The notes beneath the pieces were generated by a model, which was not told the DNA's origin, did no database searches, and saw nothing but the letters and a program-made list of their open reading frames with translations. The translations under genes and the position numbers were made by a program. From NCBI GenBank assembly GCA_000182565.2, contig KQ257461.1: a DNA stretch of 64,000 bases; one strand, given 5' to 3'. The DNA comes from Spizellomyces punctatus DAOM BR117. Taxonomy: Eukaryota. This document shows, piece after piece, positions 8,661 to 41,902 of the stretch (position 1 is its first letter; each line of letters starts with the position of its first letter).

Positions 8661-10407
8661 ATGACCCACTCTTACGAGCTCGATAGCCACCACACTTCAG
8701 ATGAACACTTTGCAGAACTCGAAGCAAGTGACATCGGCGCACAATTTGATGGACTTTCGTCCGTACACAGCGAACATGTCCCGTCTCCGCACTCACCGCA
8801 CGAGTCGCTCCCACATTCACCCTCTGTCGCACACCTCGTAGCTTCTCCTGTCCGGCTGGCATCGGACGGTGCAGACCGCACGACAGACTCTGACCTTCAG
8901 CTGAAGCAGGAAACACATCAGAATGGGGATTCATCACAGCAGCAGCAACAGCAGCAACAACACCAAGAACAACAACAACTACAACAAGCAACCCATCATC
9001 ATCAGCAGCAGCCTGATCTAAAGATAGAGGGACCCTACCTCTCTGATGTGATTCCATCTACCCTAAGTCTACCACATATGGGTGAACCTCCTCTCCATCC
9101 CTCGCATCCGCACCAGCACGCTCACCCTCATCACGATCCTACATCCACATTTTCTCATTTTGCCGCGCCAGCCAGCACGCATATGCACTCTCCTGCTCTG
9201 CAACCCCATCGAACAGGCCGTGCGCGTGCTCAAACGTTCCATTTCGGATCACCCGCAAACGTTACCTACAGTCCAATGAGCACGTATGCTCCATTGACAC
9301 AACAAGTTTATTCATTCCCGTACTCCTCGGGACGCTTTCAATACCAAGGCATGTCCCAATCCATGTCACCGCTTGCCACCGTCCCAGAGCACCCGCTACC
9401 ACCTATCTCAACCACACAGCAATTGTCTCCGCACGAGCACATGTTTACCATTCCACCACCGCCCCTATCCGACTCTGACCGTCCGGTTTTGCAGTTCCGA
9501 CATCAACAGCAACAGCAACAGCATTTTTTCCACGATGGACAGCAGCGCATGCGGCGCTCACCACCAGCCATGACGCGTCAGCGAAGTAGCAGTGACCAAG
9601 TCATGCGGCCTAGCACGCTGTTAGTCGACACGGGCATGGCACGACGTCCCTCGGTCATGTCCTACAACGGCGCCATGGTGTCCCCTTTGGGCACGCCAAC
9701 ACCCGATCCTTATGAGGGACATATGAGCGTGTCCGCGGGAGCCATTATGATGGGTGGGCATATGGGAAGCCTGGGAGACCCGTTAGGACAACCTATGGGT
9801 TACGGAACAGGATATCTCAATCCGGCCCACCTATCTCAACCCCATACTCGTCGACGCGCACCATCCGCTCCACTGATTCCTCATCCATCCTATTTCCACA
9901 CTCCGGTCGCATCCCCCAGCGAATCGTCGAGCCCTCACGACAGTCCTCAAATGCTCCACTACTCCACAGACCCTTCGTCCACCCCGATCATGAACCCTGT
10001 CGACGAAGACTTTAAGCGGCGCATACTCCAACTCAAGTTTGAAGAACGCGAAATCGCCATCGACTTCTTAAAAGATCAAGCTAAACAGGCTGGATTCTCC
10101 GTGTTGGTACGCACGAGTCGACCGGACTACGTGGTCATTATTTGCAATTGTGGGCGCCGGGTCAAGCAAGTGGAGGGGGAACGCAAACGGAAACGGAAGC
10201 GAAAGACGGCCATGACGGGATGTGAGTGGCATGTGATTTTGTTTCGGAGGAATATCCCTGGGTAAGTTTTGCATATTTTTGATCATGGTTGGAGCTTGTT
10301 GTTGACTCGTTTTTGCGTCGTGTAGGAGCACTGCACCTCGAATGTGGGAGTTTCGAGCGAGCAGTAAAATGGAGCATAACCATCCACTCAACCTCAACGA
10401 TGACTGA
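8661..10407 (+). CDS. Putative transcription factor with Q/H/P-rich region and C-terminal FAR1/AFT-like (WRKY-GCM1 fold) zinc DNA-binding domain; exons 8661-10261 and 10326-10407
   Basis: Motif FEEREIAIDFLKDQAKQAGFSVLVRTS...ICNCG...KTAMTGCEW. Splicing the GTAAGT...TAG intron 10262-10325 restores ...MWEFRASSKMEHNHPL (C..C..HNH). Confidence 0.8.
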
Positions 10408-11350
10408 GCTCCCAACCGGGGACCCATGTATTTGAGATTCCTTGTCAATTTAACACTCCTTTTTTTTTGGAATATCCTGTTTGGAGATTTTGTCTGTAGG
10501 CCTCGTGCTGTTCTAGTTTCAAAGCATACCCAGTGTGTAGCTTTATTGTAGAGTTTTTTTTTGTATTGTCATGTTGACTGTGGGGATTTTAGATTTTTTT
10601 AGACTTTGTGTATAGCCCAGGTGGATGGACAATAGATGTTCGAGTTGTGAAAGATGAGAGATGTTATATCCCAATGCAAATGGGCACGGTGATGAGTGTG
10701 TGGTTCGGATGCTACAACGTTTTGTAATCGCACAATCAAGTCAGTTACCGTATGCACAACTCAAGAAGCATTGGATTGATAACGCAAAGGGCCATAGTTT
10801 AAATCTGGAGCAGGAAACGAGTTTTTGTGAACACATGCAGAAAGTGTTTCAGAGCCCGAATTATCGCAACGATCATCATCACGCAAAGATGATGTGCCAA
10901 GGAAAAATCGATCAACATCTAAACGAGCACCTGCAGCGTTTAACAATCCCATGCCATCACGACAAACAAAATGGATGGTATCAAACATGGCTTTATCCCA
11001 TATTTTGCATACGAACACAAAATCAGCAAAGAATGCCTTTTGCGCAACTCGATTTGCACAAAGTTACAAGGCAAGGGACAAAGCTCAGGACAAAAAAAAA
11101 ACGGTATCAACCATGTTATTCAAGGTATCAACCGTGTTATTCAAAAACAACGGTTTTAATGATAGCTAACTACTATATCCACATGAGAAAATACATTATA
11201 AAGTGTGAAAATAAATGACTTTGGGCTACTGGTTTTGCGTTTTCACACACCAAAGAAAACACACACACACATACAACACACAGACTGGTACAATCCATTC
11301 TATTCCCGTCCCACCACCATCCCTTCCACAACCTGCTCCTATGTTGATGT

Positions 11351-12487
11351 TCAAGGCCCACCATCAATTACAGGTAAAGAATGATTATGCTCCATTTTAG
11401 GGGTTGCCCGAAACTCCCACTTTTTACCACCACTCCTGAACAAGACAACTCGCCACTCACACCCCGTCATAGCCGTCTTGAACCTCCGATTCCGTTTCCG
11501 TTCGCCCTTTAATCTCTTGAGGCGTCTCCCACAATTACAAATCACGACCACGTAATCGGGTTTAGAGGTACGCACCAGGACGGTGAAACCAAAGTTTTTC
11601 GCCACGGTCTTTATGTATTCTATTGCGGGATCTTTGGTGTCGAATGTTTGGTTCAAGAGGGCTGATTTAAAGGTGTGAGGATCGTATGGAGTGTAGCCGT
11701 CTGGCAGTGGGGTGAGACGGGGGTTATACCGGTAGGATTGTTGACCTTGTACTTGGGGAACAGGAGGGATATTGGGTTGTTGTTGGGGAGACGCATGATG
11801 CGAGTAGATGCGCGAATACGGGAGTGTAAATGGACTTGCACCTGCACCAGCTGACGGCGTTGGATACATGAGAGGATCCGAGGGTATCATGGACATGTGA
11901 GAATGCTGATGATGGGAATGATGTTGTGGTTGTTGCTGTTGCTGTTGCTGTTGCTGCTGTTGTTGTTGTTGTTGGGAGTGATGATGATGAGAATGTGTTT
12001 GATGTTGTTGATGGTGATGCGATGGATGGGTATAGGCTGAAGAGGATGAAGCCGCGGAAGAAAATATAGATGCATCTGGATAGTTGACGTTGAGTGCAGG
12101 ATCATAGGTTCCAAAGGCCGACTGAGGTGTGTGGTGGGGCGTCTGCAATTGCTGTGGCTGAGAATGCGATCCAAGCGGAGGAGACGAATGCGTGTGATGA
12201 TGCCGTTGAGAGGTGTAGGAATGTGTCGTGTCAAATGAGCGTTGAAATGCGGGCAGAATCACCTTGCTGGTTGTGTTTGTAGTCGTGTCTGGGAGGTGCG
12301 AGGAATGATAGGAGGAATGAGGGCGGAAAGAGTACATATCTTGAAGAATGGGGGCAGGATGCGAATAGGAATCGGTCATCGTCAAATGTGGAATAGACAG
12401 TCGATTCGTTTGATACAGTGAGGACGACGACGATGGAGAGGATCCAGTCGTGGGAGCGTTGTTGAGAGCAGCGAGAGCGAGGGACAT
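11351..12487 (-). CDS. Paralogous FAR1/AFT-like transcription factor with poly-Q/H tract (intronless CDS)
   Basis: FDTKDPAIEYIKTVAKNFGFTVLVRTSKPDYVVVICNCG...KTAMTGCEWRVVLFR...WEFRATPKMEHNHSL. ATG at 12487. Confidence 0.8.
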   Translation of the reverse strand: MSLALAALNNAPTTGSSPSSSSSLYQTNRLSIPHLTMTDSYSHPAPILQDMYSFRPHSSYHSSHLPDTTTNTTSKVILPAFQRSFDTTHSYTSQRHHHTHSSPPLGSHSQPQQLQTPHHTPQSAFGTYDPALNVNYPDASIFSSAASSSSAYTHPSHHHQQHQTHSHHHHSQQQQQQQQQQQQQQQPQHHSHHQHSHMSMIPSDPLMYPTPSAGAGASPFTLPYSRIYSHHASPQQQPNIPPVPQVQGQQSYRYNPRLTPLPDGYTPYDPHTFKSALLNQTFDTKDPAIEYIKTVAKNFGFTVLVRTSKPDYVVVICNCGRRLKRLKGERKRNRRFKTAMTGCEWRVVLFRSGGKKWEFRATPKMEHNHSLPVIDGGP

Positions 12488-13944
12488 CCCAATTCGATCT
12501 TTGATGGGTTTCAGAGAGAAAATAAATAAAGCAACCACACAGGGATTGCATCCACAGGGAATCGAACTCTAGCAAAATGACTTGGAATGCACGAAGTGCC
12601 CTTAATGCATTCAATCCGGCCTCTGTCAGAAAAGAGAATCCTCAGCCAGGAGAATTCCAACCGGTCTTTAAGAACACTTGCACAAGTGTTCCAATTTTTT
12701 TGGTTGTCAATTCACAGCTAGCCTTTCGAAAGAGACGGCGGTAGGTGATGCTCTTGCCGTCGTCGTAGTCGTCCCGTCACTTGTTTCAAGAAACAGGGGA
12801 AGGGTCGACCAGTTTGCGTTCGTTGACGGCGCCGGTTGAGGGCGCCTTTGACTTGCAGTCCGTTGTTCAGTCTGCGCCTGCGTCCGTTTGGTCCTGTTAC
12901 GTCCGTTAACGTCCGTTCACTCTGCTCAGTCCGTTGACTGCGAGTGGAATTCCTTCTGCAAAACGAGCGGGGGAACGAGAGCTCAGTATATATATGTAAT
13001 AGTATGTCCGTGTCGTGACATCTCAAGATATATAAACAAATAAAAGTCAAACGGTAAAACTTGGTCCACCCACAACGCGTTTGAAACACGCCAACTCTAC
13101 AGTTTTTTTAAGACAGTTCTTAACTCACATGGACAACAGGCTTCAAGGCAAGATAAAATACGCGAGACCAGCCGAACTTGCAAATTAGGCGCTGATTTCT
13201 ACGTTTTGAATTGAGGGGGCAGGCGGGGCATCAGGCACGTTCGCCTTTCCTTTTTAACCGTCTACTACTACGATAATGCACAGATTCGGCACCCAATGGT
13301 AAATGGGGAACCCGAGTTGCTTTTCTCGGGTCAAAAAATGCTGACGCCGTGCTTGTCGTCAAAGAGTAGCTATAAGGATTGGGGATCCCACTTTTTAGTG
13401 GCGTTTGACTGCTTCGAGGCCTAACGATAGTAGACGGAAACGCATGGCCTCATGGGCCATGAGCATCATTACCCATCCTGGGCAGCGAGATGTGTAATGA
13501 TAGTGCTAGGTAAGTAGGCTCTGTCCTACGAGTTCCCCACTCGCGTCGTCTTTGTCCACAATCCATGCTTTCCTAAAATTAACACGAAATCGGCTCAAGA
13601 CAAGAAACAGAACAAGAGAAAATCTGGGGCGGGGAACCTGTTCAAAAGCCCAGATCGGAGAGGAGTTGGGGATGGCTTTTGTCAAGGGCACGCGCCAAAA
13701 CGCAAACGCAACAGGCCGAAAACTTCACACTTACGCTCGGCTCCCCAAAAGCCCCCGGTCGTGCTTTGCCACATGGCAGCCACCCGCGAGCCACTGTGGC
13801 TTACTAAGCATCCAATTCGTATCGAATATTTGATATCAGCAACATTGCAGTGCGTGCGTCCAACCAGGTTTGATGGTATGGCCTAGGAATTGTTGAATAA
13901 TTGCAACCACAATGGGCCGGTTGAAACCCGCTTCTATGCTCATC

Positions 13945-14033
13945 CGATCACATATTCGATAGTGCGGAGCCGATGGGTATTGGCACTAGCACCCGCACCA
14001 GGGATTGAACCGGCGACAACCAGTTCGGAAAAG
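13945..14033 (-). ncRNA. Fanzor omegaRNA: ~74-nt scaffold (14033-13960) plus flank-derived guide TCGAATATGTGATCG (13959-13945)
   Basis: Begins ~15 nt after the Fanzor stop and overlaps the right TIR. The sequence TTTTCCGAACTGGTTGTCGCCGGTTCAATCCCTGGTGCGGGTGCTAGTGCCAATACCCATCGGCTCCGCACTA closely resembles my recollection of the SpuFz1 scaffold. Exact RNA ends are inferred. Confidence 0.85.
13960..13989. repeat. Right terminal inverted repeat of the Fanzor element (includes terminal TA)
   Basis: TAGTGCGGAGCCGATGGGTATTGGCACTAG; inverted match to 41873-41902 with one mismatch. Confidence 0.93.
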
Positions 14034-14047
14034 GTAATCTAACTAAT

Positions 14048-14112
14048 CTACGCTACGGCTGGAACACCCCTGCTGAACACTTTTGGTCTACCGTGTCCAT
14101 CTAACATTGATT
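14048..14112 (-). pseudogene. Detached C-terminal codons of the Fanzor ORF
   Basis: Joined to 39921 across GATT, it reads ...WNRDMLSTCNMLMIMK-SMLDGHGRPKVFSRGVPAVA*, with the TAG at 14050-14048. Confidence 0.9.
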
Positions 14113-14717
14113 TGTAGCGAACGACTCTGATAAACCGGTTCGCTCTGTAGCGAACGACTCTGATAAACCGGTTCGCTTAAAGGCATCAGGTGACCATGAT
14201 TGAGGTTTCCGCAATTGCAACCTAAGCTTCGAAACCCCTGAGATCAAGCTCGGTTCTGGGCTACACCAGCGCAGCGCAAAGGATACGTTACACAGCCATG
14301 ATTGATCATGGCGATGGTCCGAGATGGGAAGATCGGACGCTGCCACCCTAATGAAGGCTATGGAAACTAGTGTAGATGTTACCATAGCATATTCTTGTAT
14401 AAAAAGAGGAATTCAATAAAATAAGTCAGCGGGCAGAAGCCGTAGCGACACAAAATCCCCATAACTCACTTCTCAACTCCAATCTTAGGTTAACAGGAAC
14501 CTAACAGAGCGCTTCAATGGCCTGATCACCCATACCGAAGCCTCTAAATCCTGCTCGGTTCACGACTAACCGACTCTCCTTGCCTCTCACCCTCAAGTCG
14601 CTACCGACGCCCAAAGAAAGGATTTGGAGACTACGATTCCTAGTACGGACACCCATACAACCTGCTAGGAGACCCAAGTTGTCTTTACCGTAGTCTACCA
14701 ACAAAAAATCCATTACA
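14113..14717 (+). repeat. LTR-A (5' of A1), first 33 bp tandemly duplicated
   Basis: TGTAGCGAACGAC...CCATTACA, with TATAAAA and AATAAA inside. Homologous to 22735-23306, 31410-31981 and 39348-39920. Confidence 0.92.
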
Positions 14718-14728
14718 TGGTGGAGAAG
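14718..14728 (+). promoter_or_regulatory. Primer-binding site, tRNA-Ala-like (TGGTGGAGA)
   Basis: Immediately follows the LTR terminal CA. Complementary to the ...TCTCCACCA 3' end typical of tRNA-Ala. The same site occurs in copy A2 at 31401-31409 (-). Confidence 0.7.
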
Positions 14729-14871
14729 TGCGACGAACTGCCTTCCCCTCTCAAATTCAGCTGAAAACCTTATTCGGTCGTACCGAAACTCTTGCACAAA
14801 CCGAGATCCGCTCAGGTAGCTACTCGGAAACCTTTTCTCTCGTTTCGGAAACAGACTTCACGAAACCGAGA

Positions 14872-17800
14872 ATGATGCCGGTCGAACGCTCTCCAACGCG
14901 AGGCTGCTCACCTGTGATCCAGACTCGTAGTCAGGGTCCTGCGGAGGACGTTGAAGTCCCTCCCGCAACATGCCCAAGGCGTTCAGGGACCACTTCCGTC
15001 GAACCGGAAGCCCCTAACTTGGCCACGATGGCCTCTGAAGTGGCAGCATTAAAAGAAGACATTGCCCGCTCGACTGCTGCAATGCAGTTGGCAACTCAAA
15101 ATCTTACGGAACAGCTTCATAGGCTTTCCGAACGTCAGACAGCGGCGGATGAGCGCCTCGCACGAGCCTTAGAAGCCCTAGTGCATCGCCCGCTGCCTGA
15201 ACAACCTCTCATAGCACGAGCTACAAGAGAACGGTCCGCAACCCCGTGGGAAACGTCGGACACACCAAGGGAGCATACCGAACCAAGTTTTTCAGGTCCG
15301 GTGCCTCCAATCCAAGTGCCAGCGGCCCCGTGGGCCAGCGACACCAAGGTCGATTCCTTGAAAGCAAAGGACGTACCCGAGTTTACGGGCAAAAGAAACC
15401 AAGACATTGAAGAATGGCTCAACAAAGTCCAACTTCTTCAAAATGTTAGCGCAATGTCGGATGCCAGGATGGTACAGCTCCTACCAGCCATGATAGCCGA
15501 GAAAACCCCTGCCGACGCTTGGTTTTACACTCTGGAAGCCCAGGAAACTCGCTCGTGGACCTGGAAAAGGTGGAAAGAAGAACTGCTTCGAGAGTTCCGA
15601 GATCCCCTAACCGAGTCCAAGCGCAAAACCGAATATGTGTGCTGCCATGCAAACCCCAAAGAATTTCGCAGCTTTCTCGCGTTCATTGACCACAAAACTC
15701 ATCTCCGGCGCCTCGCATACGGCGACCGGGCAAACATAGAATGTCCTGCTGACCAGCATTTTGACCTAATAGTTGAACAATTGCCCAGCGACATCCAAAT
15801 CATGGTCAAATCCTGTAATGTCATGAACCTGACCAAATTAAAAGACTTCCTGCGCCTTTATTTCAGCTCTGATGACACCAGAAAATGAGACCCTTGCTAC
15901 AGCGGTGCTGCAGAAGCTCAGAAGAAGTCACAAAAGACCGGAACTGACAAAGGCCCTAAGCAGACGGCTCAACATAAAACTGGAAACCCCGAAAAGGGTT
16001 GCGACGGCCCTCAGAAGATGGTTCTGGACCCCAACACAGAACCACCGGCACCCTGCAAATTCTGTCAGAAAAAGCATTGGAATGTTTTCTGCTGGCAGAA
16101 CCCGAACCGAAAAGATCCTGAAGATGGAAAGAAGGGACCATACGGAGCACCCATGCCCGCAGGTTGGAAACCCAAACAGGAGTCCAAGAAGTCGTACATA
16201 GTGGAGCTGGACTCGACGTCCGCTACCACCGAGACTCTTTTTTCGGCTTCGGAACTGGAAAGGACAGCCGCCGCTAATCAAGGATTCCACACCATCGGAT
16301 TCTTTCATTCACCCGAGCACTCGGAATCAACAATTTTGATGACCGCACCTCTTTCCGAGGTCACGGTGACCAAGGAAGAGGACCCCCACATGCCCACGCA
16401 GGGCTGGGACCAAGTCTGGGACAACATAGCCATCATCTGGGGCACCCCGCAAGTGGCTCTGATGATGGGCAACAACCCCCGCGCGCTCAGCTTCTTCGCC
16501 AAAGAACCGAAGCGAGGCGCCGGGCACCTCGGGAACAACCCCTACGCAGTTGTGTGGAGTTCCCACCACCTCTACATCGCTGCCGCAGCCAAAGCTGACA
16601 AGGATCGAATCCTGCGAAAAGTCCGAGAAGACAGTACCCCTTGTTTGATCCTCCTTGCCTGGATAAGGCTCGACGAGCATGAGAAATTCTTGATGTGGAG
16701 CTCCGAAGATCCTGTTATCTTTGATTCTTACGCCAACCTGCAACTGGTGGCATTTCTCCTGACAGGCAATATCATTCGCTCAGACTATTATTATCATCAC
16801 AGAAACCCCAAATTTCTGCACGTTAAAGACCATCCACGTCTCCAAAGACATGAAGAGAGCGAACGGACGTGTATAGTCATGCTGGCTATCGAACAAGTTG
16901 CTCGCCAGAATAAAACAACAAAACCACAAAATGACAAATCTAGAGAGCACTTTGAGAGTGCGATCAAGGCTACGGAAGCAACAAGTAACGACATCGCGCC
17001 CCATTTCGAGGTCATGGTGCCTTCCATCAATGCCTTCTACTCGGTAGATTTAGGCGATGTACTCAAAAGCCAGACCAAGACCCAAACGCAGCCTTGCTGG
17101 ACGCTAGCCGTCATCGCTCAGCTCTGGGCACCTGTGGTACTAGACACAGGAGCCTGCGAGTCTCTGGTTTCCGACACGTACCAGGGCCTTCTGTTCTCCG
17201 AAACTGATTTGCAGGATGCGGAAACGATGGCTTTCAAAGGCATTGGTGGACGTATCTCATCTACCAAGACAGTATGCCTCAAAACTTCCCTCAGAGGCCG
17301 CGGAGGAGAATACCTGACTTTCCGCGCCTATTTCCGAGTCATTGCATACGGGAAACCTCTCATCATCCTAGCCAATGACGTTCTGGGACATCTGAAACTC
17401 CAAACCTTGGTTCAGGAACCCCCATTACCCAGTTTCGTGGTGATGCTCAAGAATCCGGACATCCTTATCCCTTGCTCCATAACAGATGAGCTGGACACCG
17501 ATCACATGCGCAGCATGCCATACAAGACCAAGCAGGGTGAATTCATGAAGGATGCATCAATGCCACGGCTGACCAAAGCCAAAGCTCAGAAGTCTAGATT
17601 AACCATGTTAATCATGGGACAGACGCGCGTGGCAGCCCAAACTTTTCTCATCAAAAACCCTCTTGACGCCACCGCTGCTAGCTCAACGGTCCTGTTAGGC
17701 CTCAAACTGTCCACCGCGACCCATAATTCGGTTGCGGACCCCGAAGAGAACATTTCCAAAGAAGAATGGCAGACACTTCGGAACAAATGGAACCTCGACT

Positions 17801-20800
17801 CTACGGAGAGGGCTCCAGGGGCCTTCGAAGCCCAATTAAAAGACGCGGAACGTTTCCACGTCGATCTCAAGCGACCCAAACCCATGGTCTGGGCCCTAAT
17901 CAACATTCTACGACACTTCCATCAAGCCTTCAGCTATGAGGGTCATCTCATAGGGAACTACACCAAGATTCCTTATGCGCCTCGATTTATCTCGGCTCTG
18001 CCACCCCTTTCGAGGCCACGGTCATACTCTCCGTTGGAGCGGACAGCCCTCGAGACGGAGCGAGACACCATGATGGGGCTTCAGAGGTGGAACGAACCAC
18101 CGAAGTAACCTTCGCCAGCGATCCTGTTATCATTCGCTATGCAGACAAACCCCCGCGCATAGCCTTCGACTATCGCCGAGCCAACGACTGCATGGCCTGG
18201 GATCCATATCCCTTTCCCATCATGCTCGACATCCTGAACTGGATCGTCGCAGTCCCATTGCGATACATATCGGGAGGTGACGCAAACAAAGGATTCTACC
18301 AAATTGCCATCACCAATGCGTCGGTATGCAAATGGCTCGCGCTCAGACTCCATGACGGCATCTACGAACCACTCTTTATGCCCTTCGGACCCAAGACTGC
18401 CCCCTCGCACTTCTGTCAGGTGATGGACGACACCTTGGGTCCCTCCAAATGGCAAAATATCAACAACTTCGTCGACGATATCCACACACGAGCGGAGACA
18501 GCCGCGGAAGCCCTAGACGCCATTGCAGACTGGCTCGACCGCTTTTCCAGAGCCAAACTCACCCTAAGACTCGACAAGTGTCAATGGCTCTTTCACCAGC
18601 TCACGGCCCTCGGTTTCGTTGCCTCCTCTCAGGGTCTCGCTACTGATCCAGACAAGGTCGCAACCATAGTCGATTGGCCACGACCCAAATTCATAGGTGA
18701 CCTATGGTCATTCGTGGGTCTCCTAGGGTTCTATGCCCAATTCATTTCTCGCTACGCGGAACTCGTCCGACCCCTGCAAGACGCTATCCAAGAGGGCGTT
18801 CGCGAATACCGAGACCTTAAAAAGGGTCGCACTGACCCGAAGAAAGGCACTGAAAAGCTCAATTCACCATCCATGCTCGACACGGCGGTGGCCCCTACAA
18901 TCACAGCCACCGGAGCCTGATTTGAGGTTTCGCAACATCCGAAATCTAGCTCCTCAGACCTACCGGTGGTCAATCTACGCCAATCATCGCTGGCGGACTT
19001 ACCCATTGACCCCTTTTGTGTCGGACGCCTTGCTTGCAAGCGCCCCGACCAAGGTCTGCACAGATTTATCGCGAAGCGTGAAGTTTCATGGACCGATTCC
19101 CAAAACTCTGCCTTCGCAGCCGCCAAGCAGGCTCTGACAACAGCTCCAGTGCTCGCGGCACCCAGAAAAGGGTTCCCCTACACCCTTCACAGTGACGCTT
19201 CCTACACAGCGTTTAATGTCACGCTCGAACAGTTACAGCCAGATGCTTCTAAACGCCCGCTGTGCTACCATTCCTGAGGCACCACCACCTCGGAAAAGAA
19301 GGCCCCCCCTGTCAAACTCAAGGCCGGATGCCTCATTTGGGGCCTCGGAAAACTCCGCCCATACCTTGAAGGCCTGCCTTTCACGGTCATTACTGATCAC
19401 CGAGCTCTTTTGTGGCTCGCTAAATACAAAGGCGAGAACCGTAAGCTTCTCCGCTGGGCCCTCGATCTTAGTTACTGGTCTGAATGGATGACAATCATTC
19501 ACAAACCAGGACGTTTTCACATTGTTGCTGATACACTTTCATGGCTACTAGGAGCGGAAACCCTACTCTGCTCCACCGCGACCCAAATATGGGTGTCGAA
19601 ACGCGGAAGACGATGGCTGCGCACCACACCAGCTGCTCTCGCACCTTCCTCGACACTGGCAGATGCCGTCTTTCGTCTGGCCTTACAGCCTGCACTCATT
19701 GCCGCCATCCGCGCTGGCCTCACCGGCCAGCTCCACCCCATAGCCCAACAGGCCCGCACGCTCCTATGGGAGACCAGCCCCAACACCTACACTACAGCCG
19801 ATGCGCACTTTCTTCAGGACTGGCAATGTGCAGATAACCTGCTGTGGCACCGTTTTTCAGTCTCCGAAGACCTTTGGTGCCTCTACGTGCCCCCTGCTTG
19901 CACCCCCAAGGTGCGCAAGCTTTTTCACGAGGGGGGAGGACACTTCGGATTCGAAAGAACCTACGCCAGAGCCACAGCACAAGTCTGGTGGCCAAAGATG
20001 GCACAAGATTTCAGAAAACATTGCGCAGGATGTGAAACCTGCCAACGCTCAAAAAGGGTACCGCAACTGATTCCGGGGTTGTTGAAACCCATACCACCAG
20101 CTCCGGGACGCTGGACAGTCATCACGACTGACTTCGTAACCAAGCTCCCACTTACTTCCAGAGGGTACGATGCCTTTTGGCTAATAGCTTGTAAATGCTC
20201 AAAGAGGATCCACATATGGCCCCTCAAGAGCACCGCGACAGCTACTCAGGTCGCAGAACTATTTATAGAATGCTACATCCCATTGCACGGCATTCTGGAG
20301 ACTATTATCTCAGACCATGACTCCATCATTGAAAGGCTGTCAGAAACCAGAAATGCAGATGTGGAAGAGCTCTGTAAACATCTCGGAGACCTAAACATCC
20401 TTATCCGAGATCTGATGATTGAGGCCCAGGATTCACAGAAAAGATATGTGACAGAATTCTTCTGTCAGTGCTATGGTTATACTGGTTAGATGTGGTTCCA
20501 AACTAGTGGTCACATGACTTTGCTGATGGTGTCAACATTCATTTGACCAGAATTAGATAAATAAGCAGATTTAGCCATTTCTGGCTAAATTAGATGAGTA
20601 TCCTGACACACTAGCATCTGCCCCTTTCAATCAAGTGGCACAGTGTATTTAGGATGACTTGTCTCACTTGTGATTGGCTATAAATGGTGCAATAGGCTGA
20701 CAAATAGTTTAGGATGACATGTACAAGATCTGATTGGTTGCAAATGGTGCAATAGGCTGACAAATAGTTTAGGATGACATGTACAAGATCTGATTGGTTG

Positions 20801-22677
20801 CAAATGGTGCAATAGGCTGACAAATAGTTTAGGATGACATGTATGAGTTCTGATTGGTTGCAAATGGTGCAATAGGCTGACAAATAGTTTAGGATGATGT
20901 GGGTGAGATCTGATTGGGTAGTTAGGATATAGCATTTGTCAGCCCCTTTGTCTATAAAAAGAGGACCTCTCTGAGGCCCCTCAAAGGAAAATAACAAGTA
21001 GTAACCAAGTCTTCCCTAGTTTTCTGTTGTCTTCTTGTCCCTGCTAGCCTGTTACAAGATACTATGATTTATCACAACAACATTTGGAGTTCCGGAGAGG
21101 AGATAAGGTGCTTCTGAGCATGAAAAACCCAGCAGGGTATGAGTCCAAGATCACTCCAAAATGGCTGGGACCAGTCACAGTGACTGACTGTAACCTTCTC
21201 TGTGACAACTACGAGTGAAAACTGCCAGATAAGATGAGATGACTTCATCCATGGTTTCACATATTGAAATTATGTCCATACCAGAAGCCTGTCGATGCCG
21301 AAACTGAGGAAAGGATCGCGGAAGCACAAATGGAGGATTCCGACACTTCAAAAGGCGAGTTCGAAGTGGAAGCGATAGTAGACCATCGAACCAGGCGCAG
21401 AAAGCGTCAATTTCGAATACGTTGGGCCGGATACCCACCCCATGAGGATACCTGGGAACCAGAGGAAGCCCTAACAGAGGCTTCCGAAGCCTTAGAAGAG
21501 TACTGGAGATCCAGAGCTCCCACTAGCGCACTAGTAGAGGACTCCTTGGTAGTCAGCTTTGCAGGCGATGCCCTGGCTTACACTTCCGACCACCAATGCT
21601 TCACAATTTATCCGGACAATAGCTCACGTGATAATCACGCCCTCTCACCAGAANNNNNNNNNNNNNNNNNNNNNNNNNNNNNNNNNNNNNNNNNNNNNNN
21701 NNNNNNNNNNNNNNNNNNNNNNNNNNNNNNNNNNNNNNNNNNNNNNNNNNNNNNNNNNNNNNNNNNNNNNNNNNNNNNNNNNNNNNNNNNNNNNNNNNNN
21801 NNNNNNNNNNNNNNNNNNNNNNNNNNNNNNNNNNNNNNNNNNNNNNNNNNNNNNNNNNNNNNNNNNNNNNNNNNNNNNNNNNNNNNNNNNNNNNNNNNNN
21901 NNNNNNNNNNNNNNNNNNNNNNNNNNNNNNNNNNNNNTACCCTTGAGGAAGGCTATCCCTGGTCAGAAGTAAGCGACGCTTCGCTGCCGAGACTCTATCG
22001 AGCGGCTCGGAGCAGCTATGGCCACCTGGGTCGAAGTTTGGATTCGTGAGCTGTTCGAAGACCCAAACAAACCCCTCGAACACTATCATGGTGAAGATTG
22101 GGTGGTTGACGGGGCTTCGAAGCTGTACGCCACGAGCCAGCCCCTCACGATGCATATTGCGGAGCCCTACAGTAGGGCTTCCGACGGCGGTCAAGCAGCT
22201 GTCGGTATCGTCGCTGATGCAAAAAAGATCGGGAAGAGATTACGGGACGTACCCTGCGCCGCCTGGCTTGATGCTGGGGTCCCTCAACATGCGGCCGGAA
22301 ACCCCAAAACGGCCCGCTTCACCCTCTGGCCTGATCGCGAGGCCCACGATTTTGCGGACATAGCCATCGAAGCCGCGAGAGCAGTGTTGTTAAAGCTAGC
22401 CAACGCAGCTGAAACCACAGAAGAGCAGCTCCGTCCCAAACATCGGGAGCACGCCTATTACCACTTTCGAGCGGTTAACTTGAAAAGGGCCGCAGAGACG
22501 TTCACAGCCCTCTACGTAACCCGAGCCAACGGTTCCAGGACACCTGGAACCCTGGCTCCGGAAGCCACTGACCAAATTTGGTTCTGCGCAAACATCATGG
22601 GGCGCACTACCATAATCTGGATGATCAACGAAGACAGCCTTGAAGCTGACGATGACTATCCAGTTGCGTCATGGTAG
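14872..22677 (+). pseudogene. Family A gag-pol (Gag, CCHC knuckle, Dam-like insert, aspartic protease, RT, RNase H, partial integrase, chromodomain, C-terminal extra domain), disrupted
   Basis: Motifs CKFCQKKHWNVFC, VLDTGA, FDYRRAN, PFGPKTAP, FVDD, LHSDAS, H..GGHFG..C..C, TDFV and EVEAIVDHR...RWAGY...DTWEP. Stops at 15886, 18918 and 19275, a 1-bp frameshift near 18092, and an LTR-B insertion. Confidence 0.88.
20447..21056 (+). mobile_element. Solo LTR of family B (610 bp) in the A1 integrase region
   Basis: TGTGACAG...GTTACA flanked by a 5-bp AGATA duplication; internal 60-bp tandem repeats. Confidence 0.92.
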
Positions 22678-22734: not shown

Positions 22735-23306
22735 TGTAGTGAACGACTCTGATAAACCGGTTCGCTCAAAGGCATCAGGTGACCACGATTGAGGTTTCCG
22801 CAATTGTAACCTAAGCTTCGAAACCCCTAAGATCAAGCTCGGTTCTGGGCTACACCAGCGCAGCATGAAGGATACGTTACGCAGCCATGATCAATCATGG
22901 CGATGGTCCGAGATGGGAAGATCGGATGCCGCCACCCTAATGAAGGCTACGGAAACTAGTGTAGACGTTACCGTAGCATATTCTTGTATAAAAAGAGGAA
23001 TTCAATAAAATAAGTCGGCGGCCAGAAGCCGTAGCGACATTAAATCCCCACAACTAGCTTCTCAACTCCAATCTTAGGTTAACAGGAACCTAACAGAGCG
23101 CTTCAATGGCCTGATCACCCGCACTGAAGCCTCTAAATCCTGCTCGGTTCATGACTAACCGACTCTCCTTGCCTCTCACCCTCAAGTCGCTACCGACGCC
23201 CAAAGAAAGGATTTGGAGACTATGATTCCTAGTACGGACACCCACACAACCTGCTAGGAGACCCAAGTTGTCTTTACCGTAGTCTACCAACAAAAAATCT
23301 GTTACA
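22735..23306 (+). repeat. LTR-A (3' of A1), preceded by PPT GAAGGGGGGA
   Basis: Homologous to 14146-14717; followed by CTGG. Confidence 0.92.
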
Positions 23307-25685
23307 CTGGGATTCTCTGGGTTTCTGGGGTTCTCTGGGATGCTGGGGTTCTCTGGGGTTCCAGGTAAAGTCCATGGATAGTTAAAGTCTCAGGGGTGGT
23401 TTCAGGTGGGTCCAATAGGTCCAAGGGTTGAATAACAGGAGAGTGTACCAGGTGGTGGGTGTCAGGGTGGTGGTTCTTGATATCTTCCCCAGTAGAGGCA
23501 GAACCTCTATCTTCTACTGAGTCTGCTTGCCATTTCCCTGCTGCTTGGTCTTCAAGGGGCATAGGGGGGCAATATGGCCTGGTTTTCTGCACCTGAAACA
23601 GGCTCCCTTCTTTCTGAGCTCAGTCTTCTCAGCCTCAGTGAGTTTGGAGAGAGGCTTCCCAGAGTTGGTGGATATACTATCTATCTCCATAGGGACTACT
23701 CCAGAGTTCTCAGTCTTAGGGGAGTAGTAGCTGGTGGCCTGGCTTCTTCTCTGGTAGCTGAACTGGATCTGGTCAATCCTATCAGCTGTTGCTGCAGCTG
23801 TGGCTAAGTTGATGGGTGGGNNNNNNNNNNNNNNNNNNNNNNNNNNNNNNNNNNNNNNNNNNNNNNNNNNNNNNNNNNNNNNNNNNNNNNNNNNNNNNNN
23901 NNNNNNNNNNNNNNNNNNNNNNNNNNNNNNNNNNNNNNNNNNNNNNNNNNNNNNNNNNNNNNNNNNNNNNNNNNNNNNNNNNNNNNNNNNNNNNNNNNNN
24001 NNNNNNNNNNNNNNNNNNNNNNNNNNNNNNNNNNNNNNNNNNNNNNNNNNNNNNNNNNNNNNNNNNNNNNNNNNNNNNNNNNNNNNNNNNNNNNNNNNNN
24101 NNNNNNNNNNNNNNNNNNNNNNNNNNNNNNNNNNNNNNNNNNNNNNNNNNNNNNNNNNNNNNNNNNNNNNNNNNNNNNNNNNNNNNNNNNNNNNNNNNNN
24201 NNNNNNNNNNNTCCTAATCTCTTCGACATAGGTGGTGGCTACTAACAGTTGGCCTTCTGGTGATAGATCTGCAGCTGCCTGGAAGTACTCTTCAAGTCTG
24301 AGGAGGTATGTCCTAATCTCTTGGACATTCCTGTTGCCTTTGTAGGGCTTCAACTTGCTTTGGAGGACTTTTACCAGGGATTTATCTACTCTGGGTTGGT
24401 ACTGAGCAGTGGCTGGTGTGGTGGAGTTCAGCTGCTGGAGCTTTGCTTGATAAAGCTCCTGCCTGACCTGGTCTATGTCAAGCTCAGCAATGGTGTTGAA
24501 GAGAATCTCTTCCTGGCTGGTCATGGTGGTAATGGGGTGGAGTCTTGGGTAGTTACAATATTACTTGTAACAACAACAATAGGGTGGGTCACAGGCCCAA
24601 GAGATGCAATGTTACTTGCAGTCAAAATAGGGTGGGTCACAGGCCCAAAATATGCAATATTACTTGCAAGTACAACTGGTGGGGAGGATACAGGGGGACT
24701 CTACAGCTTCTTCACAATCCCACAATAGAAAAACTCTATCTGTTTTCTCAGAGCTTCTGATGCTAACCAAGTGGTGTGTCTGGTGGTAGTTCTGGAGGTT
24801 GTGCTGGGGGTAGGTTTGTGGTATGGGGTGGTGTGGGCTGGTCTGTAGGAGTCCTTGAGGGGGGGTTCTGGGCATAAGTTGGGCCTGGGATAAGAGGCAG
24901 GGGTCTTCTGATATTACTCAGAAGGACTAGGGCAGGGTCTGGGGTCTGGGGTCTGTTGGTCTTCTGATATTACTCAGAAGGTCTAGGGCAGGGTCTGGGG
25001 GTCTGGGGATCTTAGCTTCTGATCTCTCACAGAAGGTCTAAGAGTCTGGGGTTGTTGTCTAAGGTGGTGCTACCATGTAACAGGCTAGCAGGGACAAGAA
25101 GACAACAGAAAACTAGGGAAGACTTGGTTACTACTTGTTATTTTCCTTTGAGGGGCCTCAGAGAGGTCCTCTTTTTATAGACAAAGGGGCTGACAAATGC
25201 TATATCCTAACTACCCAATCAGATCTCACCCACATCATCCTAAACTATTTGTCAGCCTATTGCACCATTTGCAACCAATCAGAACTCATACATGTCATCC
25301 TAAACTATTTGTCAGCCTATTGCACCATTTGCAACCAATCAGATCTTGTACATGTCATCCTAAACTATTTGTCAGCCTATTGCACCATTTGCAACCAATC
25401 AGATCTTGTACATGTCATCCTAAACTATTTGTCAGCCTATTGCACCATTTATAGCCAATCACAAGTGAGACAAGTCATCCTAAATACACTGTGCCACTTG
25501 ATTGAAAGGGGCAGATGCTAGTGTGTCAGGATACTCATCTAATTTAGCCAGAAATGGCTAAATCTGCTTATTTATCTAATTCTGGTCAAATGAATGTTGA
25601 CACCATCAGCAAAGTCATGTGACCACTAGTTTGGAACCACATCTAACCAGTATAACCATAGCACTGACAGAAGAATTCTGTCACA
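23307..25685 (-). mobile_element. 5' half of Ty3/gypsy family B: LTR 25685-25076, PBS, repeat-rich leader, gag, start of pol
   Basis: The LTR appears identical to 20447-21056. PBS TGGTAGCACCACC at 25075-25063. Leader has ~57-bp and ~48-bp tandem repeats. Confidence 0.9.
23514..24524 (-). CDS. Family B Gag with CCHC zinc knuckle (spans an N gap)
   Basis: KPYKGNRN...YLLRLEEYF, VPMEID and CFRCRKPGHIAPLC. Confidence 0.8.
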   Translation of the reverse strand: MTSQEEILFNTIAELDIDQVRQELYQAKLQQLNSTTPATAQYQPRVDKSLVKVLQSKLKPYKGNRNVQEIRTYLLRLEEYFQAAADLSPEGQLLVATTYVEEIRXXXXXXXXXXXXXXXXXXXXXXXXXXXXXXXXXXXXXXXXXXXXXXXXXXXXXXXXXXXXXXXXXXXXXXXXXXXXXXXXXXXXXXXXXXXXXXXXXXXXXXXXXXXXXXXXXXXXXXXXXXXXXXXXXXXPPINLATAAATADRIDQIQFSYQRRSQATSYYSPKTENSGVVPMEIDSISTNSGKPLSKLTEAEKTELRKKGACFRCRKPGHIAPLCPLKTKQQGNGKQTQ

Positions 25686-28600
25686 TATCTTTTCTGTGAA
25701 TCCTGGGCCTCAATCATCAGATCTCGGATAAGGATGTTTAGGTCTCCGAGATGTTTACAGAGCTCTTCCACATCTGCATTTCTGGTTTCTGACGGCCTTT
25801 CAATGATGGAGTCATGGTCTGAGATAATAGTCTCCGGAATGCTGTGCAATGGGATGTAGCATTCTATAAATAGTTCTGCGACCTGAGTAGCTGTCGCGGT
25901 GCTCTTGAGGGGCCATACGTGGATCCTCTTTGAGCATTTACAAGCTATTAGCCAAAAGGCATCATACCCTCTGGAAGTAAGTGGGAGCTTGGTTACAAAG
26001 TCAGTCATGATGACTGTCCAGCATCCCAGAGCTGGTGGTATGGGTTTCAGCAACCCCAGAATCAGTTGCGGTACCCTTTTTGAGCATTGGCAGGTTTCAT
26101 ATCCTGTGCAATGTTTTCTGAAATCTTGTGCCATCTTTGGCCACCAGACTTGTGCTGTGGCTCTGGCGTAGGTTCTTTCGAATCCGAAGTGTCCTCCCCC
26201 CTCGTGAAAAAGCTTGCGCACCTTGGGGGTGCAAGCAGGGGGCACGTAGAGGCACCAAAGGTCTTCGGAGACTGAAAAACGGTGCCACAGCAGGTTATCT
26301 GCACATTGCCACTCCTGAAGAAAGCGCGCGTTGGCTGTAGTGTAGGTGTCAGGGCTGGTCTCCCATAGGAGCATGCGGGCCTGTTGGGCTATGGGGTAGA
26401 GCTGGCCGGTGAGGCCAGCGCAGATGGCGGCAATGAGTGCAGGCTGTAAGGCCAGACAAAAGACGGCATCTGCCAGTGTCAAGGAAGGTGCGAGAGCCGC
26501 TGGTGTGGTGCGCAGCCATCGTCTTCCGTGTTCCGCCACCCATATTTGGGTTGCGGTGGAGCAGAGTAGGGTTTCTGCTCCTAGTAGCCATGAAAGTGTA
26601 TCAGTGACAATGTGAAAACATCCTGGTTTGTGAATGATTGTCATCCATTCAGACCAGTAACTAAGATCGAGGGCCCAGCAGAGAAGCTTATGGTTCTCGC
26701 CTTTGTATTTAGTGAGCCACAAAAGAGCTTGGTGATCAGTAATGACTGTGAAAGGCAGGCCTTCGAGGTATGGGCAGAGTTTTCCAAGGCCCCAAATGAG
26801 GCATCCGGCCTCGAGTTTGACGGGGGGGGCCTTTTTTTCTGAGGTGGTGGTGCCTCGAGAATGGTAGCACAGCGGGCGGTTAGAAGCATCTGGCTGTAAC
26901 TGTTCGAGCATGACATTAAATGCTGTGTAGGAAGCGTCACTGTGAAGGGTGTAGGGGAACCCTTTTCTGGGTGCCACAAGCACTGGAGCTGTTGTCAGAG
27001 CCTGCTTGGCGGCTGCGAAGGCAGAGTTTCGGGAATCAGTCCATGAAACTTCACGCTTCACAATAAATCTGCACAGACCTTGGTCCGGGCGCTTGCAAGC
27101 AAGGCATCCGACACAAAAGGGGTCAATGGGTAAGTCCGCCAGCGATGATTGGCATAGATTGACCGCCGGTAGGTCTGAGGAGCTAGATTTCGGATGTTGC
27201 GAAACCTCAAATCAGGCTCTGGTGGCTGTGATTGTAGGGGCCACCGCCATGTCAAGCATGGATGGTGAATTGAGCTTTTCAGCACCTTTCTTTGGGTCAG
27301 CGCGACCCTTTTTAAGGTCTCGGTATATGCGAACGCCCTCTTGGATAGCATCTTGCAGGGGCCAGATGAGTTCCACGTAGCGAGAGATGAATTGGGCATA
27401 GAACCCTAGGAGACCCACAAATGACCATAGGTCACCTATGAATTTGGGTTGTGGCCAATCGACTATGGTTGCAACCTTGTCTGGATCGGTAGCAAGACCC
27501 TGAGAGGAGGCAACAAAACTGAGAGCCGTGAGCTGGTGAAAGAGCCATTGACACTTGTTGAGTCTTAGGGTGAGTTTGGCTCTGGAAAAGCAGTCGAGCC
27601 AGTCTGCAATGGCATCTAGGGCTTCCGCAGCTGTCTCTGCTTGTGTATGGATATTGTCGATGAAGTTGTTGATATTTCGCCATTTGGAGGGACCCAAGGT
27701 GTCATCCATCACCCGACAGAAGTGTGAAGGGGCAGTCTTGGGTCCGAAGGGCATAAAGAGTGGTTCATAGATGCTGTCATGGAGTCTGATCACAAGCCAT
27801 TTGTGTACCAACACATTGGTGATGGCAATTTGGTAGAATCCTTTGTTTGCATCACCTCCCGATATGTATCGGAATGGGACTGCAACGATCCAGTTCAGGA
27901 TGTTGAGCATGATGGGAAAGGGATATGGATCCCAGGCCATGCAGTCATTGGCTCGGCGATAGTCAAAGGCTACCCACGGGGGTTTGTCTGCATAGCGAAT
28001 GATAACAGGATTGCTGGTGAAGGTTACTTCGGTGGTTCATTTCCACCTCTGAAGCCCCATCATGGTGTCTCGTTCCAGCTCAAGGGCTGTCCGCTCCAAC
28101 GGAGAGTATGACCATGGCCTCAAAAGGGGTGGTGGAGCCGAGATAAATCAAGGTGCATAGGGAATCTTAGTGTAGTTCCCTATGAGATGACCCTCATAGC
28201 TGAAGGCTTGATGGAAGTGTCATAGAATGTTGATTAGGGCCCAGACCACGGGTTTGGGTCACTTGAGATCGATGTGGAAACGTTCTGCATCTTTTAATTG
28301 GGCTTCGAAGGCCCCTGGAGCCTTCTCCATAGAGTCGAGGTTCCATTTGTTCCGAAGTGTCTGCCATTCTTCTTTGGAAATGTTCTCTTCAGGGTCTGCA
28401 ACCAAATTATGGGTTGTGGTGGACAGTTTGAGGCCTAATGGGGCCGTTGAGCTAGCAGCGGTGGCCTCAAGAGGGTTTTCGATGAGAAAAGTTTGGGCTG
28501 CCACGCGCATCTGTCCTGTGATTAACATGGTTAATCTAGACTTCTGAGCTTTGGCTTTGGTCAGCTGTGGCATTGACACATCCTTCATGAATTCACCCTG

Positions 28601-31600: not shown

Positions 31601-31981
31601 GATCAGGCTGTTGAAGCACTCTGTTAGGTTCCTGTTAACCTAAGATTGGAGTTGAGAAGCTAGTTGTGGGGATTTAGTGTCACTATGGCTTCTGCCCACA
31701 ACTTATTTTATTGAATTCATCTTTTTATACAGGAATATGCTACAGTAACATCTACACTAGTTTCCGTAACCTCCATTAGGGTGGCGGTGTCCGATATTCC
31801 CGTTTCCGATCATTGCCATGATCAATTATGACTGCGTACCATATCCTTTGCGCTGCGCTGGTGTAGCCCAGAACCGAGCTTGATCTCAGGGGTTTCGAAG
31901 CTTAGGTTGCAATTGCGGAAACCTCAATCATGGTCACCTGATGCCTTTAAGCGAACCGGTTTATCAGAGTCATTCGCTACA
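25686..31981 (-). mobile_element. 5' part of family A copy A2 (LTR 31981-31410, PBS, decayed gag-pol from 31255 to the integrase)
   Basis: Inverted homolog of 14146-20446 with many additional CpG-type transitions. Confidence 0.92.
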
Positions 31982-32320
31982 CCAGAATCCCAGAGAACCC
32001 CAGAAACCCAGAAAATCGCAGGACCCCTGAGAACCCCAGAATCCCAGAGAACCCCAGAAACCCAGAGAATCCCAGAACCCCAGAGAACCCCAGAACCCCA
32101 GAGAACCCCAGAATCCCAGAGAACCCCAGAACTCCAGAGAACCCAAGAACTCCAGAGAACCCAAGAACCCCAGAGAACCCAAGAACTCCAGAGAACCCAA
32201 GAACCCCAGAGAACCCCAGAACCCCAGAGAACCCAAGAACCCCAGAGAACCCCAGAACCCCAGAGAACCCTAGAACCCCAGAAAACCCAGGAACCCCAGA
32301 GAACCCCAGAACCCCAGACC
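31982..32320 (+). repeat. 18-bp coding tandem repeat (CCAGAACCCCAGAGAACC; PEPQRT), about 19 units; continues at 23307-23363 on the opposite strand
   Basis: Directly visible. Confidence 0.9.
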
Positions 32321-35300: not shown

Positions 35301-35607
35301 ACCAGTATATTCAGCAACTGCTTCAAGTAGCCAAGGATAACATGATACTGGCCCAAGAAAGACAAGTTCAGCAAGCCAACAAGTCTCTCAGCAAGGCCCC
35401 AAGCTACCCCTTAGGCTCCAAAGTTTGGCTATCTAGAGAAGGTATCACCCCAGAAGAAGAAGCCCAGAGGCCAGCCCAGAAACTTCTTCACCCCTGGCTT
35501 GGACCTTACAGAATCAAGGCCAAGGATGAATTTCAGAATTACACCCTGGAGCTCCCCAGCACCATGAAGATTCATCCAGTGTTCCATGTGAGACTCCTCA
35601 AGCCTTA
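31982..35607 (+). CDS. Family B Pol (PEPQRT repeat, protease, RT, RNase H, integrase, SH3-like), open frame, 3'-truncated
   Basis: Motifs [63 protein letters not shown] and HPVFHV. Confidence 0.92.
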
Positions 35608-41737: not shown

Positions 41738-41872
41738 TGATGATATCTGTGGGAAAAGATGAAAGCCTGGGAAAATGGGCAACGACAACTTATATAGGAT
41801 TTTTTGGATCAAACCATAGTTCATGAGTCTAAATCGAGTAAAATTATGATTAAATTGGTTGGAATCTATGTA

Positions 41873-41902
41873 CTAGTGCCAATACCAATCGGCTCCGCAC
41901 TA
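41873..41902. repeat. Left terminal inverted repeat of the Fanzor element; the minus strand reads CATA (41904-41901) at the boundary
   Basis: CTAGTGCCAATACCAATCGGCTCCGCACTA followed by TG. Confidence 0.93.

Follow-up and report, generated by a model that had tools for sequence, protein, structure and literature searches.

The guide RNA (omegaRNA) of SpuFz1, the Fanzor1 (Fz1) nuclease of the Spu-1 transposons of Spizellomyces punctatus, consists of a 75-nt scaffold and a 14-15-nt guide and is detected in its native host as an RNA of 88-90 nt (PMC10432273). Its structure comprises two stems and a linker, in which the protein grips U5, C6 and C7 and C6 pairs with G20 (PMC10432273), and three Fz1 structures show stem-loop 1 with seven base pairs, bound by the RuvC and TNB domains (Xu et al. 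2024, PMC11423790). Here we analyse a 64 000-nt stretch of S. punctatus DAOM BR117 (GenBank assembly GCA_000182565.2, contig KQ257461.1; hereafter the window) in which an omegaRNA locus on the minus strand resembles a tRNA gene, with an A-box-like and a B-box-like motif at tRNA spacing. A preliminary description had read this resemblance as an internal type-2 RNA polymerase III (Pol III) promoter captured from a tRNA, or as a tRNA-derived scaffold. We identify the region as the right end of a decayed Spu-1 Fanzor1 transposon. The likely explanation of its resemblance to a tRNA gene lies, in our view, in coding sequence, a spacer prone to slippage and a conserved hairpin with its linker, with the omegaRNA coming from longer sense transcripts.

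The omegaRNA gene at 14033-13960 has already been published and the locus is a catalogued example of a known system, the same locus with the same flank being printed in Supplementary Data 1 of PMC10432273. In that paper, S. punctatus is given 42 Fanzor (Fz) loci and 134 ‘ghost’ loci, the latter keeping the inverted repeats (IRs) without the gene. The ghost omegaRNA regions are called strongly conserved, ghost scaffolds work with SpuFz1 when expressed under U6, and a CA motif and a CATA target-adjacent motif (TAM) are described for Spu-1 (PMC10432273).

Known omegaRNA parts within the tRNA-like motifs

Compared by eye, the scaffold in the window agrees letter for letter with that of ID19, an omegaRNA published for S. 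punctatus, over its full length, and the motif TTCCGAACTGG matches the ID19 row alone in the omegaRNA table. It is encoded on the Fanzor strand, in the interval from the Fanzor stop codon to the right-end IR, and starts 14 nt downstream of the stop; a 77-nt high-depth DNA contig covers 13959-14033. Numbered from 14033, the letters run C1 U2 U3 U4 U5 C6 C7, in agreement with the published U5, C6, C7 and G20. The predicted scaffold fold (-29.7 kcal/mol, z -3.43) has 8 bp in stem-loop 1, against 7 bp in the structures, and an 8-nt loop in stem-loop 2, which agrees with the published description; the right-end IR supplies most of the 3' half of stem-loop 2. Both ID19 and the type locus ID16 have 14-15 nt of guide after ...CGCACTA (PMC10432273). 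On the other side of the scaffold, the 21 codons at 14113-14051 (minus), KSMLDGHGRPKVFSRGVPAVA*, are identical to the C-terminus of SpuFz1 at 18 of 21 positions (PDB 8GKH chain P 1012-1032; E 5.7e-6). The scaffold identity and this alignment bear out the preliminary description in placing an omegaRNA locus directly after the Fanzor stop of a Spu-1 element, and also in letting the A-box-like motif overlap that stop, as the TAG ends the SpuFz1-matching frame.

The consensus of the B-box is GGTTCRANYCC and that of the A-box is TRGCNNAGTGG or TRGCNNAR-N1-3-GG. All four tRNA-like strings reported on the minus strand were found with the letters and coordinates given for them, namely the two boxes (Table 1), an anticodon-loop-like TTCCGAA at 14030-14024 and a variable-loop-like TTGTC at 14019-14015. 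The B-box consensus is matched in full at 14011-14001. The window copy agrees with the full A-box TRGCNNAGTGG at 8 of 11 positions, TAGCGTAG being followed by ATTAG and lacking the GG. The reported spacing is also correct: with the A-box T (14055) set to tRNA position 8, the G of GTTC (14010) lies 45 nt away and falls at position 53.

Each of these strings coincides with a part of the gene or of the RNA. The A-box-like motif is 10-22 nt upstream of the point where the mature omegaRNA begins (14033), and 8 of its 13 nt belong to Val, Ala and stop codons. The supposed anticodon loop is the protein-bound single-stranded 5' tail together with the first bases of stem-loop 1, and the supposed variable loop corresponds to the loop in stem-loop 1. 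The ‘A-box’ would accordingly be made of the Val-Ala-stop codons and a slippage-prone TAG-rich spacer, and the ‘B-box’ would be the 3' strand of stem-loop 1 continued by the conserved CAAU linker.

The Rfam tRNA covariance model (RF00005) had no match at E<=10 either in 12000-17000 (5 kb) or in 13960-14090 alone (131 nt). ARAGORN reported 0 tRNAs in the 64-kb window at default settings, and the site was also uncalled at thresholds of 95% and 90% and was not among the 11 calls in the window at 85%. At 80%, a tRNA-Arg(CCG) was called at c[13992,14058], as one of 51 calls in 64 kb. The earlier remark that the stems pair poorly and make no working tRNA was therefore sound, given a call at a noise-level threshold only and the empty Rfam search.

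The tRNA spacing of the motifs, together with an acceptor-like pairing of CCGTAGC with GGTGCGG (6/7) that appears both in ARAGORN's relaxed prediction and when the 74-nt piece singled out previously is folded, would fit descent of the scaffold (or of the spacer plus the 5' half of the scaffold) from a tRNA gene that was captured, or from the head of a tRNA-derived short interspersed element (SINE), with promoter function since lost. The fold of that piece, however, has a z of -1.49 and is equalled by 20 of 200 shuffles, the 3' ‘acceptor’ strand is really the 5' strand of stem-loop 2, and stem-loop 1 and the linker are common to the Parasitella Fz1 omegaRNAs and thus older than the Spu-1 family. 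As the Rfam and ARAGORN results also stand against it, we regard such descent as very improbable, and the idea of a tRNA-derived scaffold gives way to one in which every ‘tRNA part’ is a known omegaRNA part. As a separate observation, annotated tRNA genes occur near some Spu-1 ends in the supplement passages of PMC10432273 (for example, a tRNA-Thr 66 nt from a ghost IR), where the Fz file contains the word ‘tRNA’ 14 times and the ghost file 36 times.

Conservation of the motifs and proposed transcription across the right end

On our reading, the omegaRNA would be cut or trimmed from longer sense transcripts that start in the Fanzor gene or outside it and cross the right end. By analogy with TnpB, for which there is a precedent with its own mRNA, the footprint of the protein would set the ends of the omegaRNA. 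In yeast, an open reading frame (ORF) and 3' IR under one GAL-GAPDH promoter yielded omegaRNA of native size for 20 loci from ten organisms (PMC10432273), so that a separate omegaRNA promoter is unnecessary, though one may exist. In the same source, the annotated SpuFz1 mRNA extends 143 nt beyond the right end, and the mature omegaRNA ends in variable flank, not in oligo-U.

The Fanzor-linked Spu-1 right ends could instead hold a working type-2 Pol III promoter, from which a precursor independent of the mRNA would start at ~14065-14075 and be trimmed to 88-90 nt. Its A-box would be formed by the last codons, the stop and an ATTGG spacer and its B-box by stem-loop 1 and the linker, whether evolved there or retained. 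RNA depth in the omegaRNA direction in one sequencing run (X20) was 15 at 14083, 17 at 14068, 55 at 14034 and 126-143 at 14022-14005; it is flat over the predicted Pol III start (14083-14068) and rises at 14034, so that the step coincides with the mature 5' end. The scaffold 14033-13960 is covered by RNA reads, nearly all of them from other copies (599 of 620 lie only partly on the stretch). The terminators are also unlike those that would be expected of a Pol III unit, with a TTTT inside it, between the boxes, and no oligo-T shortly past the RNA: after 14032-14029, the minus strand has no further T4 until 13750-13747, which is 209 nt beyond the right end. Moreover, the mature 5' end falls within the would-be tRNA body, which makes the logic of RNase P and RNase Z inapplicable. 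With no tRNA score, an A-box upstream of the mature RNA, a TTTT inside and flat RNA depth, an internal type-2 promoter captured from a tRNA is disfavoured, and we hold a working Pol III promoter of any origin to be unlikely.

When RNA depth is divided by DNA depth, the scaffold exceeds the sequence 35-50 nt upstream by a factor of ~5-9. This difference would be expected if the omegaRNA had its own promoter, of Pol II or cryptic type and separate from that of the mRNA, within the final few hundred bases of the Fanzor gene or within the spacer. Such a promoter would also suit the ghosts, which retain conserved omegaRNA regions without a Fanzor gene, and a 275-nt 5' extension that raised activity in human cells, though this construct was U6-driven (PMC10432273). 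A stable, protein-protected product of a longer transcript, however, yields an identical depth profile, no start site is listed in the read data, and the ghost and Fanzor copies share little above the scaffold except the TAG-rich spacer. We therefore consider this arrangement quite unlikely.

Several points weigh against our reading of the locus as known parts, with the omegaRNA made from longer transcripts. The X20 reads are <=60 nt long, mostly overhang the stretch, stem from many copies and do not form a 5'-end library; their strand was deduced from the plus-strand long terminal repeat (LTR), which gives first-mate-on-plus reads, and from the shape of the omegaRNA peak; and no sharp 5' end is listed for those on 11300-14400. 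Processing by Fanzor itself is an analogy, and the native mode of omegaRNA transcription goes unstated in the portions of the literature examined. The pairing of the two boxes is above chance: TRGCNNAR and GGTTCRANYCC at 34-59 nt apart occur once in the window, whereas at least one such pair arose in only 6 of 200 shuffles. Among 17 Fz right-end passages, TAGCNTAG-ATT-GG, which fits TRGCNNAR-N3-GG, is present in 10, and the pattern of these sister copies has a ~0.4% chance of landing in the 26-nt spacing window. The B-box is invariant across all of its matches in the Fz-locus file, and the ID14 variant GGTTCAATTCC still satisfies the consensus.

The Pol III alternative draws further on the tRNA-like spacing of 45-46 nt and on the single strict GGTTCRANYCC in 64 kb, which falls in the omegaRNA (0.45 expected from shuffles). 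The exact B-box 11-mer with <=1 mismatch was seen once in the window against 1.59 expected, and the A- and B-box test gave 5/200 shuffles at a spacing of exactly 45 and 66/200 with the loose core GTTCRANNC. A native promoter is undescribed in the portions of the literature examined and, as judged by title and abstract, among the papers listed for Fanzor and Pol III, which were reviews and genome-editing or engineering work.

The ghosts differ from the Fanzor-linked copies at these very positions. The supplement text was searched with each motif split at each block phase, motifs spanning a line end being uncounted; the canonical GGTTCAATCCC (10/10 phases) was matched 26 times in the Fz-locus file and never in the ghost file, and the ghost type GGTTTATTCCC (8/10 phases) had 53 matches in the ghost file and 2 in the Fz-locus file. 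All four listed ghost scaffolds contain GGTTTATTCCC. The C and A lost in this form are the most critical positions of a B-box. Ghosts thus lack the B-box C56 and A58, and they also lack the A-box GG and ~10 nt of spacer, yet their omegaRNA is strongly conserved, and for the Pol III alternative to hold the ghost subfamily would have to have lost the promoter and rely on read-through transcription. The ghost C-to-U change retains the pairing with G8, as G-U, and G13/C22 are replaced by A/U as well in Ghost1 and Ghost2 (by eye). Since the ghosts deviate from the promoter consensus yet keep the stem, the B-box letters appear to track RNA pairing. Upstream of the scaffold, the two kinds of copy have little in common beyond the spacer already mentioned.

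This spacer is a run of short TAG-containing repeats of variable copy number. ATTAG stands in place of ATTGG in 4 of the 17 Fz right-end passages, the window locus included, and insertions of 7-8 nt after the stop and before the spacer are present in three, among them the type locus ID16, whose T-to-G distance is 53, not 45, and whose A-box is broken. The supposition that both motifs are conserved across the family was thus correct for the B-box of Fanzor-linked copies and failed for the ghosts, with no canonical B-box, and for the spacing in ID16.

Letters of the ghost type also appear in the RNA reads, in 38/143 at 14007 and 43/142 at 14005, which speaks against the Pol III alternative. The G>A change at 14007 was seen in 0/501 ChIP (chromatin immunoprecipitation)-DNA reads and in no DNA contig. 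We think that the variants at both positions stem from the ghost subfamily, two mismatches dropping 38-nt DNA reads below the 95% cut-off and sparing 60-nt RNA reads; RNA editing or a strain difference are possible alternative sources of the 14007 variant.

Outside S. punctatus, the Parasitella homologues are without the B-box: both Fz1 omegaRNAs have the tail, the 7-bp stem, the UUAUCG loop and the CAAU linker in common, and GGTTC is absent. The core GTTCRANNC was found by eye in 6 of 20 listed omegaRNAs, five of them from one S. punctatus family and the sixth being one of two from Mercenaria, so that a general B-box of Fanzor omegaRNAs was rejected. In Mercenaria, the MmeFz2 omegaRNA ID88 opens with GGTTCGATTCT, which agrees with the B-box consensus at 10 of 11 positions, and the paralogue ID89 carries GGCTCGATTCT.

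A self-contained Pol III promoter, if real, would explain how guide RNAs persist in copies with a dead nuclease gene, would let the guide RNA be expressed independently of the nuclease mRNA and would offer a compact native cassette for editing tools. The useful result here is that the tRNA-like look can be accounted for by coding sequence and known RNA structure.

The Fanzor pseudogene and its Ty3/gypsy nest

The Fanzor gene of this element is dead and is split by a 25.8-kb Ty3/gypsy nest (Table 1). The frame 41737-39923, with TGA read as X, aligns collinearly over residues 2-604 with 8GKH_P 396-1011 (1072.9 bits), and this adjoining gene is a Fanzor1 homologue with RuvC and zinc ribbon that scores 112.9 bits to Parasitella Fz1 9CF0_P. 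Its eight in-frame TGA stops are all opposite an SpuFz1 Arg, and the RuvC-II catalytic Glu (LLDEYKTS) is Lys in the pseudogene. Many further SpuFz1 Arg positions are Cys, Trp, His or Gln in 39921-41737. Such C-to-T changes at CpG, seen on both strands, suggest that cytosine methylation may have driven the decay of the pseudogene.

Public reads on 11300-14400 show 13959-14112 to be multi-copy, with DNA contig depths of 580 and 176 against 21.5 in the flank and a ChIP DNA depth of 148-169 against ~30. Reads break at the repeat boundary at 13959, as seen in both depth and loose ends, and at 14112 other copies run on with different letters in the read alignment. The 34-nt stretch 13959-13992 has an inverted copy at 41870-41903, and it was the multi-copy depth together with this shared 34-mer that led to the Fanzor gene at 41737-39921. 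The view that no Fanzor is present here was accordingly rejected; it had arisen from the open frame ending at TAG 14050-14048, which has only 42 codons and extends into the LTR, and from empty Pfam scans. No TnpB/OrfB family was found in Pfam scans of 13, 18 and 127 ORF translations, some of them repeated, and these scans were blind to Fanzor because stops cut the RuvC and zinc-ribbon parts into pieces of <75 aa outside the scanned set and because the N-terminal pieces have no Pfam family.

A single 4-bp direct repeat encloses the entire nest, which indicates that it started as one insertion. The LTR pair 14146-14445 and 22735-23034 is 94% identical, the 5' LTR begins with TGTAG at 14113, a TGG primer-binding site (PBS) follows the 5' LTR and a polypurine tract precedes the 3' LTR, and ORFs for reverse transcriptase, RNase H, integrase and chromodomain lie between the LTRs. 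At least three Ty3/gypsy pol regions were recognized, at 17940-20489 (+), 25643-28036 (-) and 31832-37099 (+), with LTR-like ends near 14597-14728, 23186-23308, 31399-31503 and 39800-39920. The 5' LTR opens with a tandem duplication of its initial 33 bp (14113-14145 and 14146-14178), which the 3' LTR has in one copy. Arrays of four 60-nt tandem repeats are found at 20648-20947 and 25215-25514, in two different gypsy copies. Of the assembly gaps (N runs) at 21654-21937, 23821-24211 and 54093-54192, two fall inside the nest.

The strict B-box match raises the question of an ‘extra TFIIIC’-type site, at which TFIIIC would bind without transcription and affect chromatin or the targeting of retrotransposons at Fanzor elements. 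Ty3/gypsy insertions are indeed reported in 11 of the 42 Fz loci, and the supplement has the word ‘ty3’ at 45 places in the Fz-locus file against a single one in the ghost file (PMC10432273), but ghost loci split by large inserts may merely be uncatalogued. The insertion points in Fanzor are scattered, at residue ~91 and ~234-242 in two supplement loci and at ~617 in the window. The elements also carry chromodomains, which usually signal heterochromatin targeting. We take a TFIIIC-binding site of this type to be extremely improbable, and Pol III-directed Ty3 targeting in particular was rejected, as the insertion points do not cluster upstream of the omegaRNA. A role of the B-box as the PBS of the element was rejected as well, the real PBS following the LTR at ~14718 and the motif lying outside the LTR.

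Near the element, a 405-codon open frame at 11354-12568 (-) matches no Pfam family; an inverted partial copy of it, 55% identical, lies ~1 kb away at 9960-10401 (+). RNA reads and RNA contigs cover 11300-11721.

Table 1. Coordinates of the features discussed, in positions of the window
Feature	Position	Strand	Basis or remark
Main part of the Fanzor1 (SpuFz1-like) ORF, pseudogene	39921-41737	-	Collinear alignment to 8GKH_P
Last 20 Fanzor codons and 2 nt	14051-14112	-	Severed from the rest of the ORF by the retrotransposon nest
Fanzor stop codon TAG	14050-14048	-	Frame end; C-terminal match to SpuFz1
A-box-like TAGCGTAGATTAG	14055-14043	-	2 nt of Val codon, Ala codon, TAG stop and 5 nt of spacer
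omegaRNA scaffold, 74 nt (5' tail, stem-loop 1, linker, stem-loop 2)	14033-13960	-	Identity to ID19 and fold
TTTT run (scaffold U2-U5), between the two boxes	14032-14029	-	U5 stacked on a protein Trp in the structure
Stem-loop 1 (scaffold positions 8-27; loop 14018-14015)	14007-14026	-	Predicted fold
B-box-like GGTTCAATCCC	14011-14001	-	3' strand of stem-loop 1 (GGUUC) and linker (AAUCCC)
Right-end IR, 30 nt	13960-13989	-	Inverted copy of 41873-41902; matches the ‘end’ feature of the type locus
Putative omegaRNA guide, ~14 nt of flank outside the right end	13946-13959	-	Length by analogy with ID19 and ID16
Left-end IR, 30 nt	41902-41873	-	Preceded by conserved CA at 41904-41903; junction reads CATA
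Ty3/gypsy chromovirus nest in the Fanzor ORF	14113-39920	.	4-bp direct repeat GATT at 14109-14112 and 39921-39924

Comparison with known systems

The units of murine gammaherpesvirus 68 (MHV68) and bovine leukaemia virus (BLV) are reportedly dependent on Pol III by experiment and equipped with oligo-T terminators. Among described systems, these viral tRNA-like Pol III small RNAs (the MHV68 tRNA-miRNA and the BLV miRNAs, PMC12498455) have the arrangement that the preliminary description proposed, an internal A/B-box promoter feeding a small RNA. For the locus in the window, in contrast, Pol III dependence is disfavoured, and no oligo-T terminator lies nearby.

With eukaryotic tRNA genes and tRNA-derived SINEs, which use type-2 Pol III promoters, the locus shares the B-box consensus, an A-box that is partial here and complete in 10 of 17 sister copies, and the 45-nt distance. 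It differs from them in having no cloverleaf and no covariance-model score, in its internal T4 with no terminator near, in a mature RNA that begins between the boxes and in the loss of the boxes in the ghost subfamily.

The TnpB omegaRNA (Nety et al. 2023, PMC10278001) is alike in that the 3' end of the nuclease gene encodes the guide RNA, which reaches to the transposon end, and in that an ORF-carrying transcript can yield the guide. Unlike it, the Spu-1 scaffold starts 14 nt past the stop and not inside the ORF, and self-processing is undescribed for Fanzor in the portions of the literature examined.

The closest relative is the SpuFz1 omegaRNA (Saito et al. 2023, PMC10432273, 8GKH), which the locus resembles in its position from stop to IR, in the ID19 scaffold, in the two stems and linker and in the CA/CATA at the left end. 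Compared with the SpuFz1 system as published, the Fanzor of the window is dead, with its eight stops and catalytic Glu changed to Lys, and is split by the retrotransposon nest; compared with the type locus ID16, its spacer is 7 nt shorter and its stem-loop 1 is 1 nt shorter.

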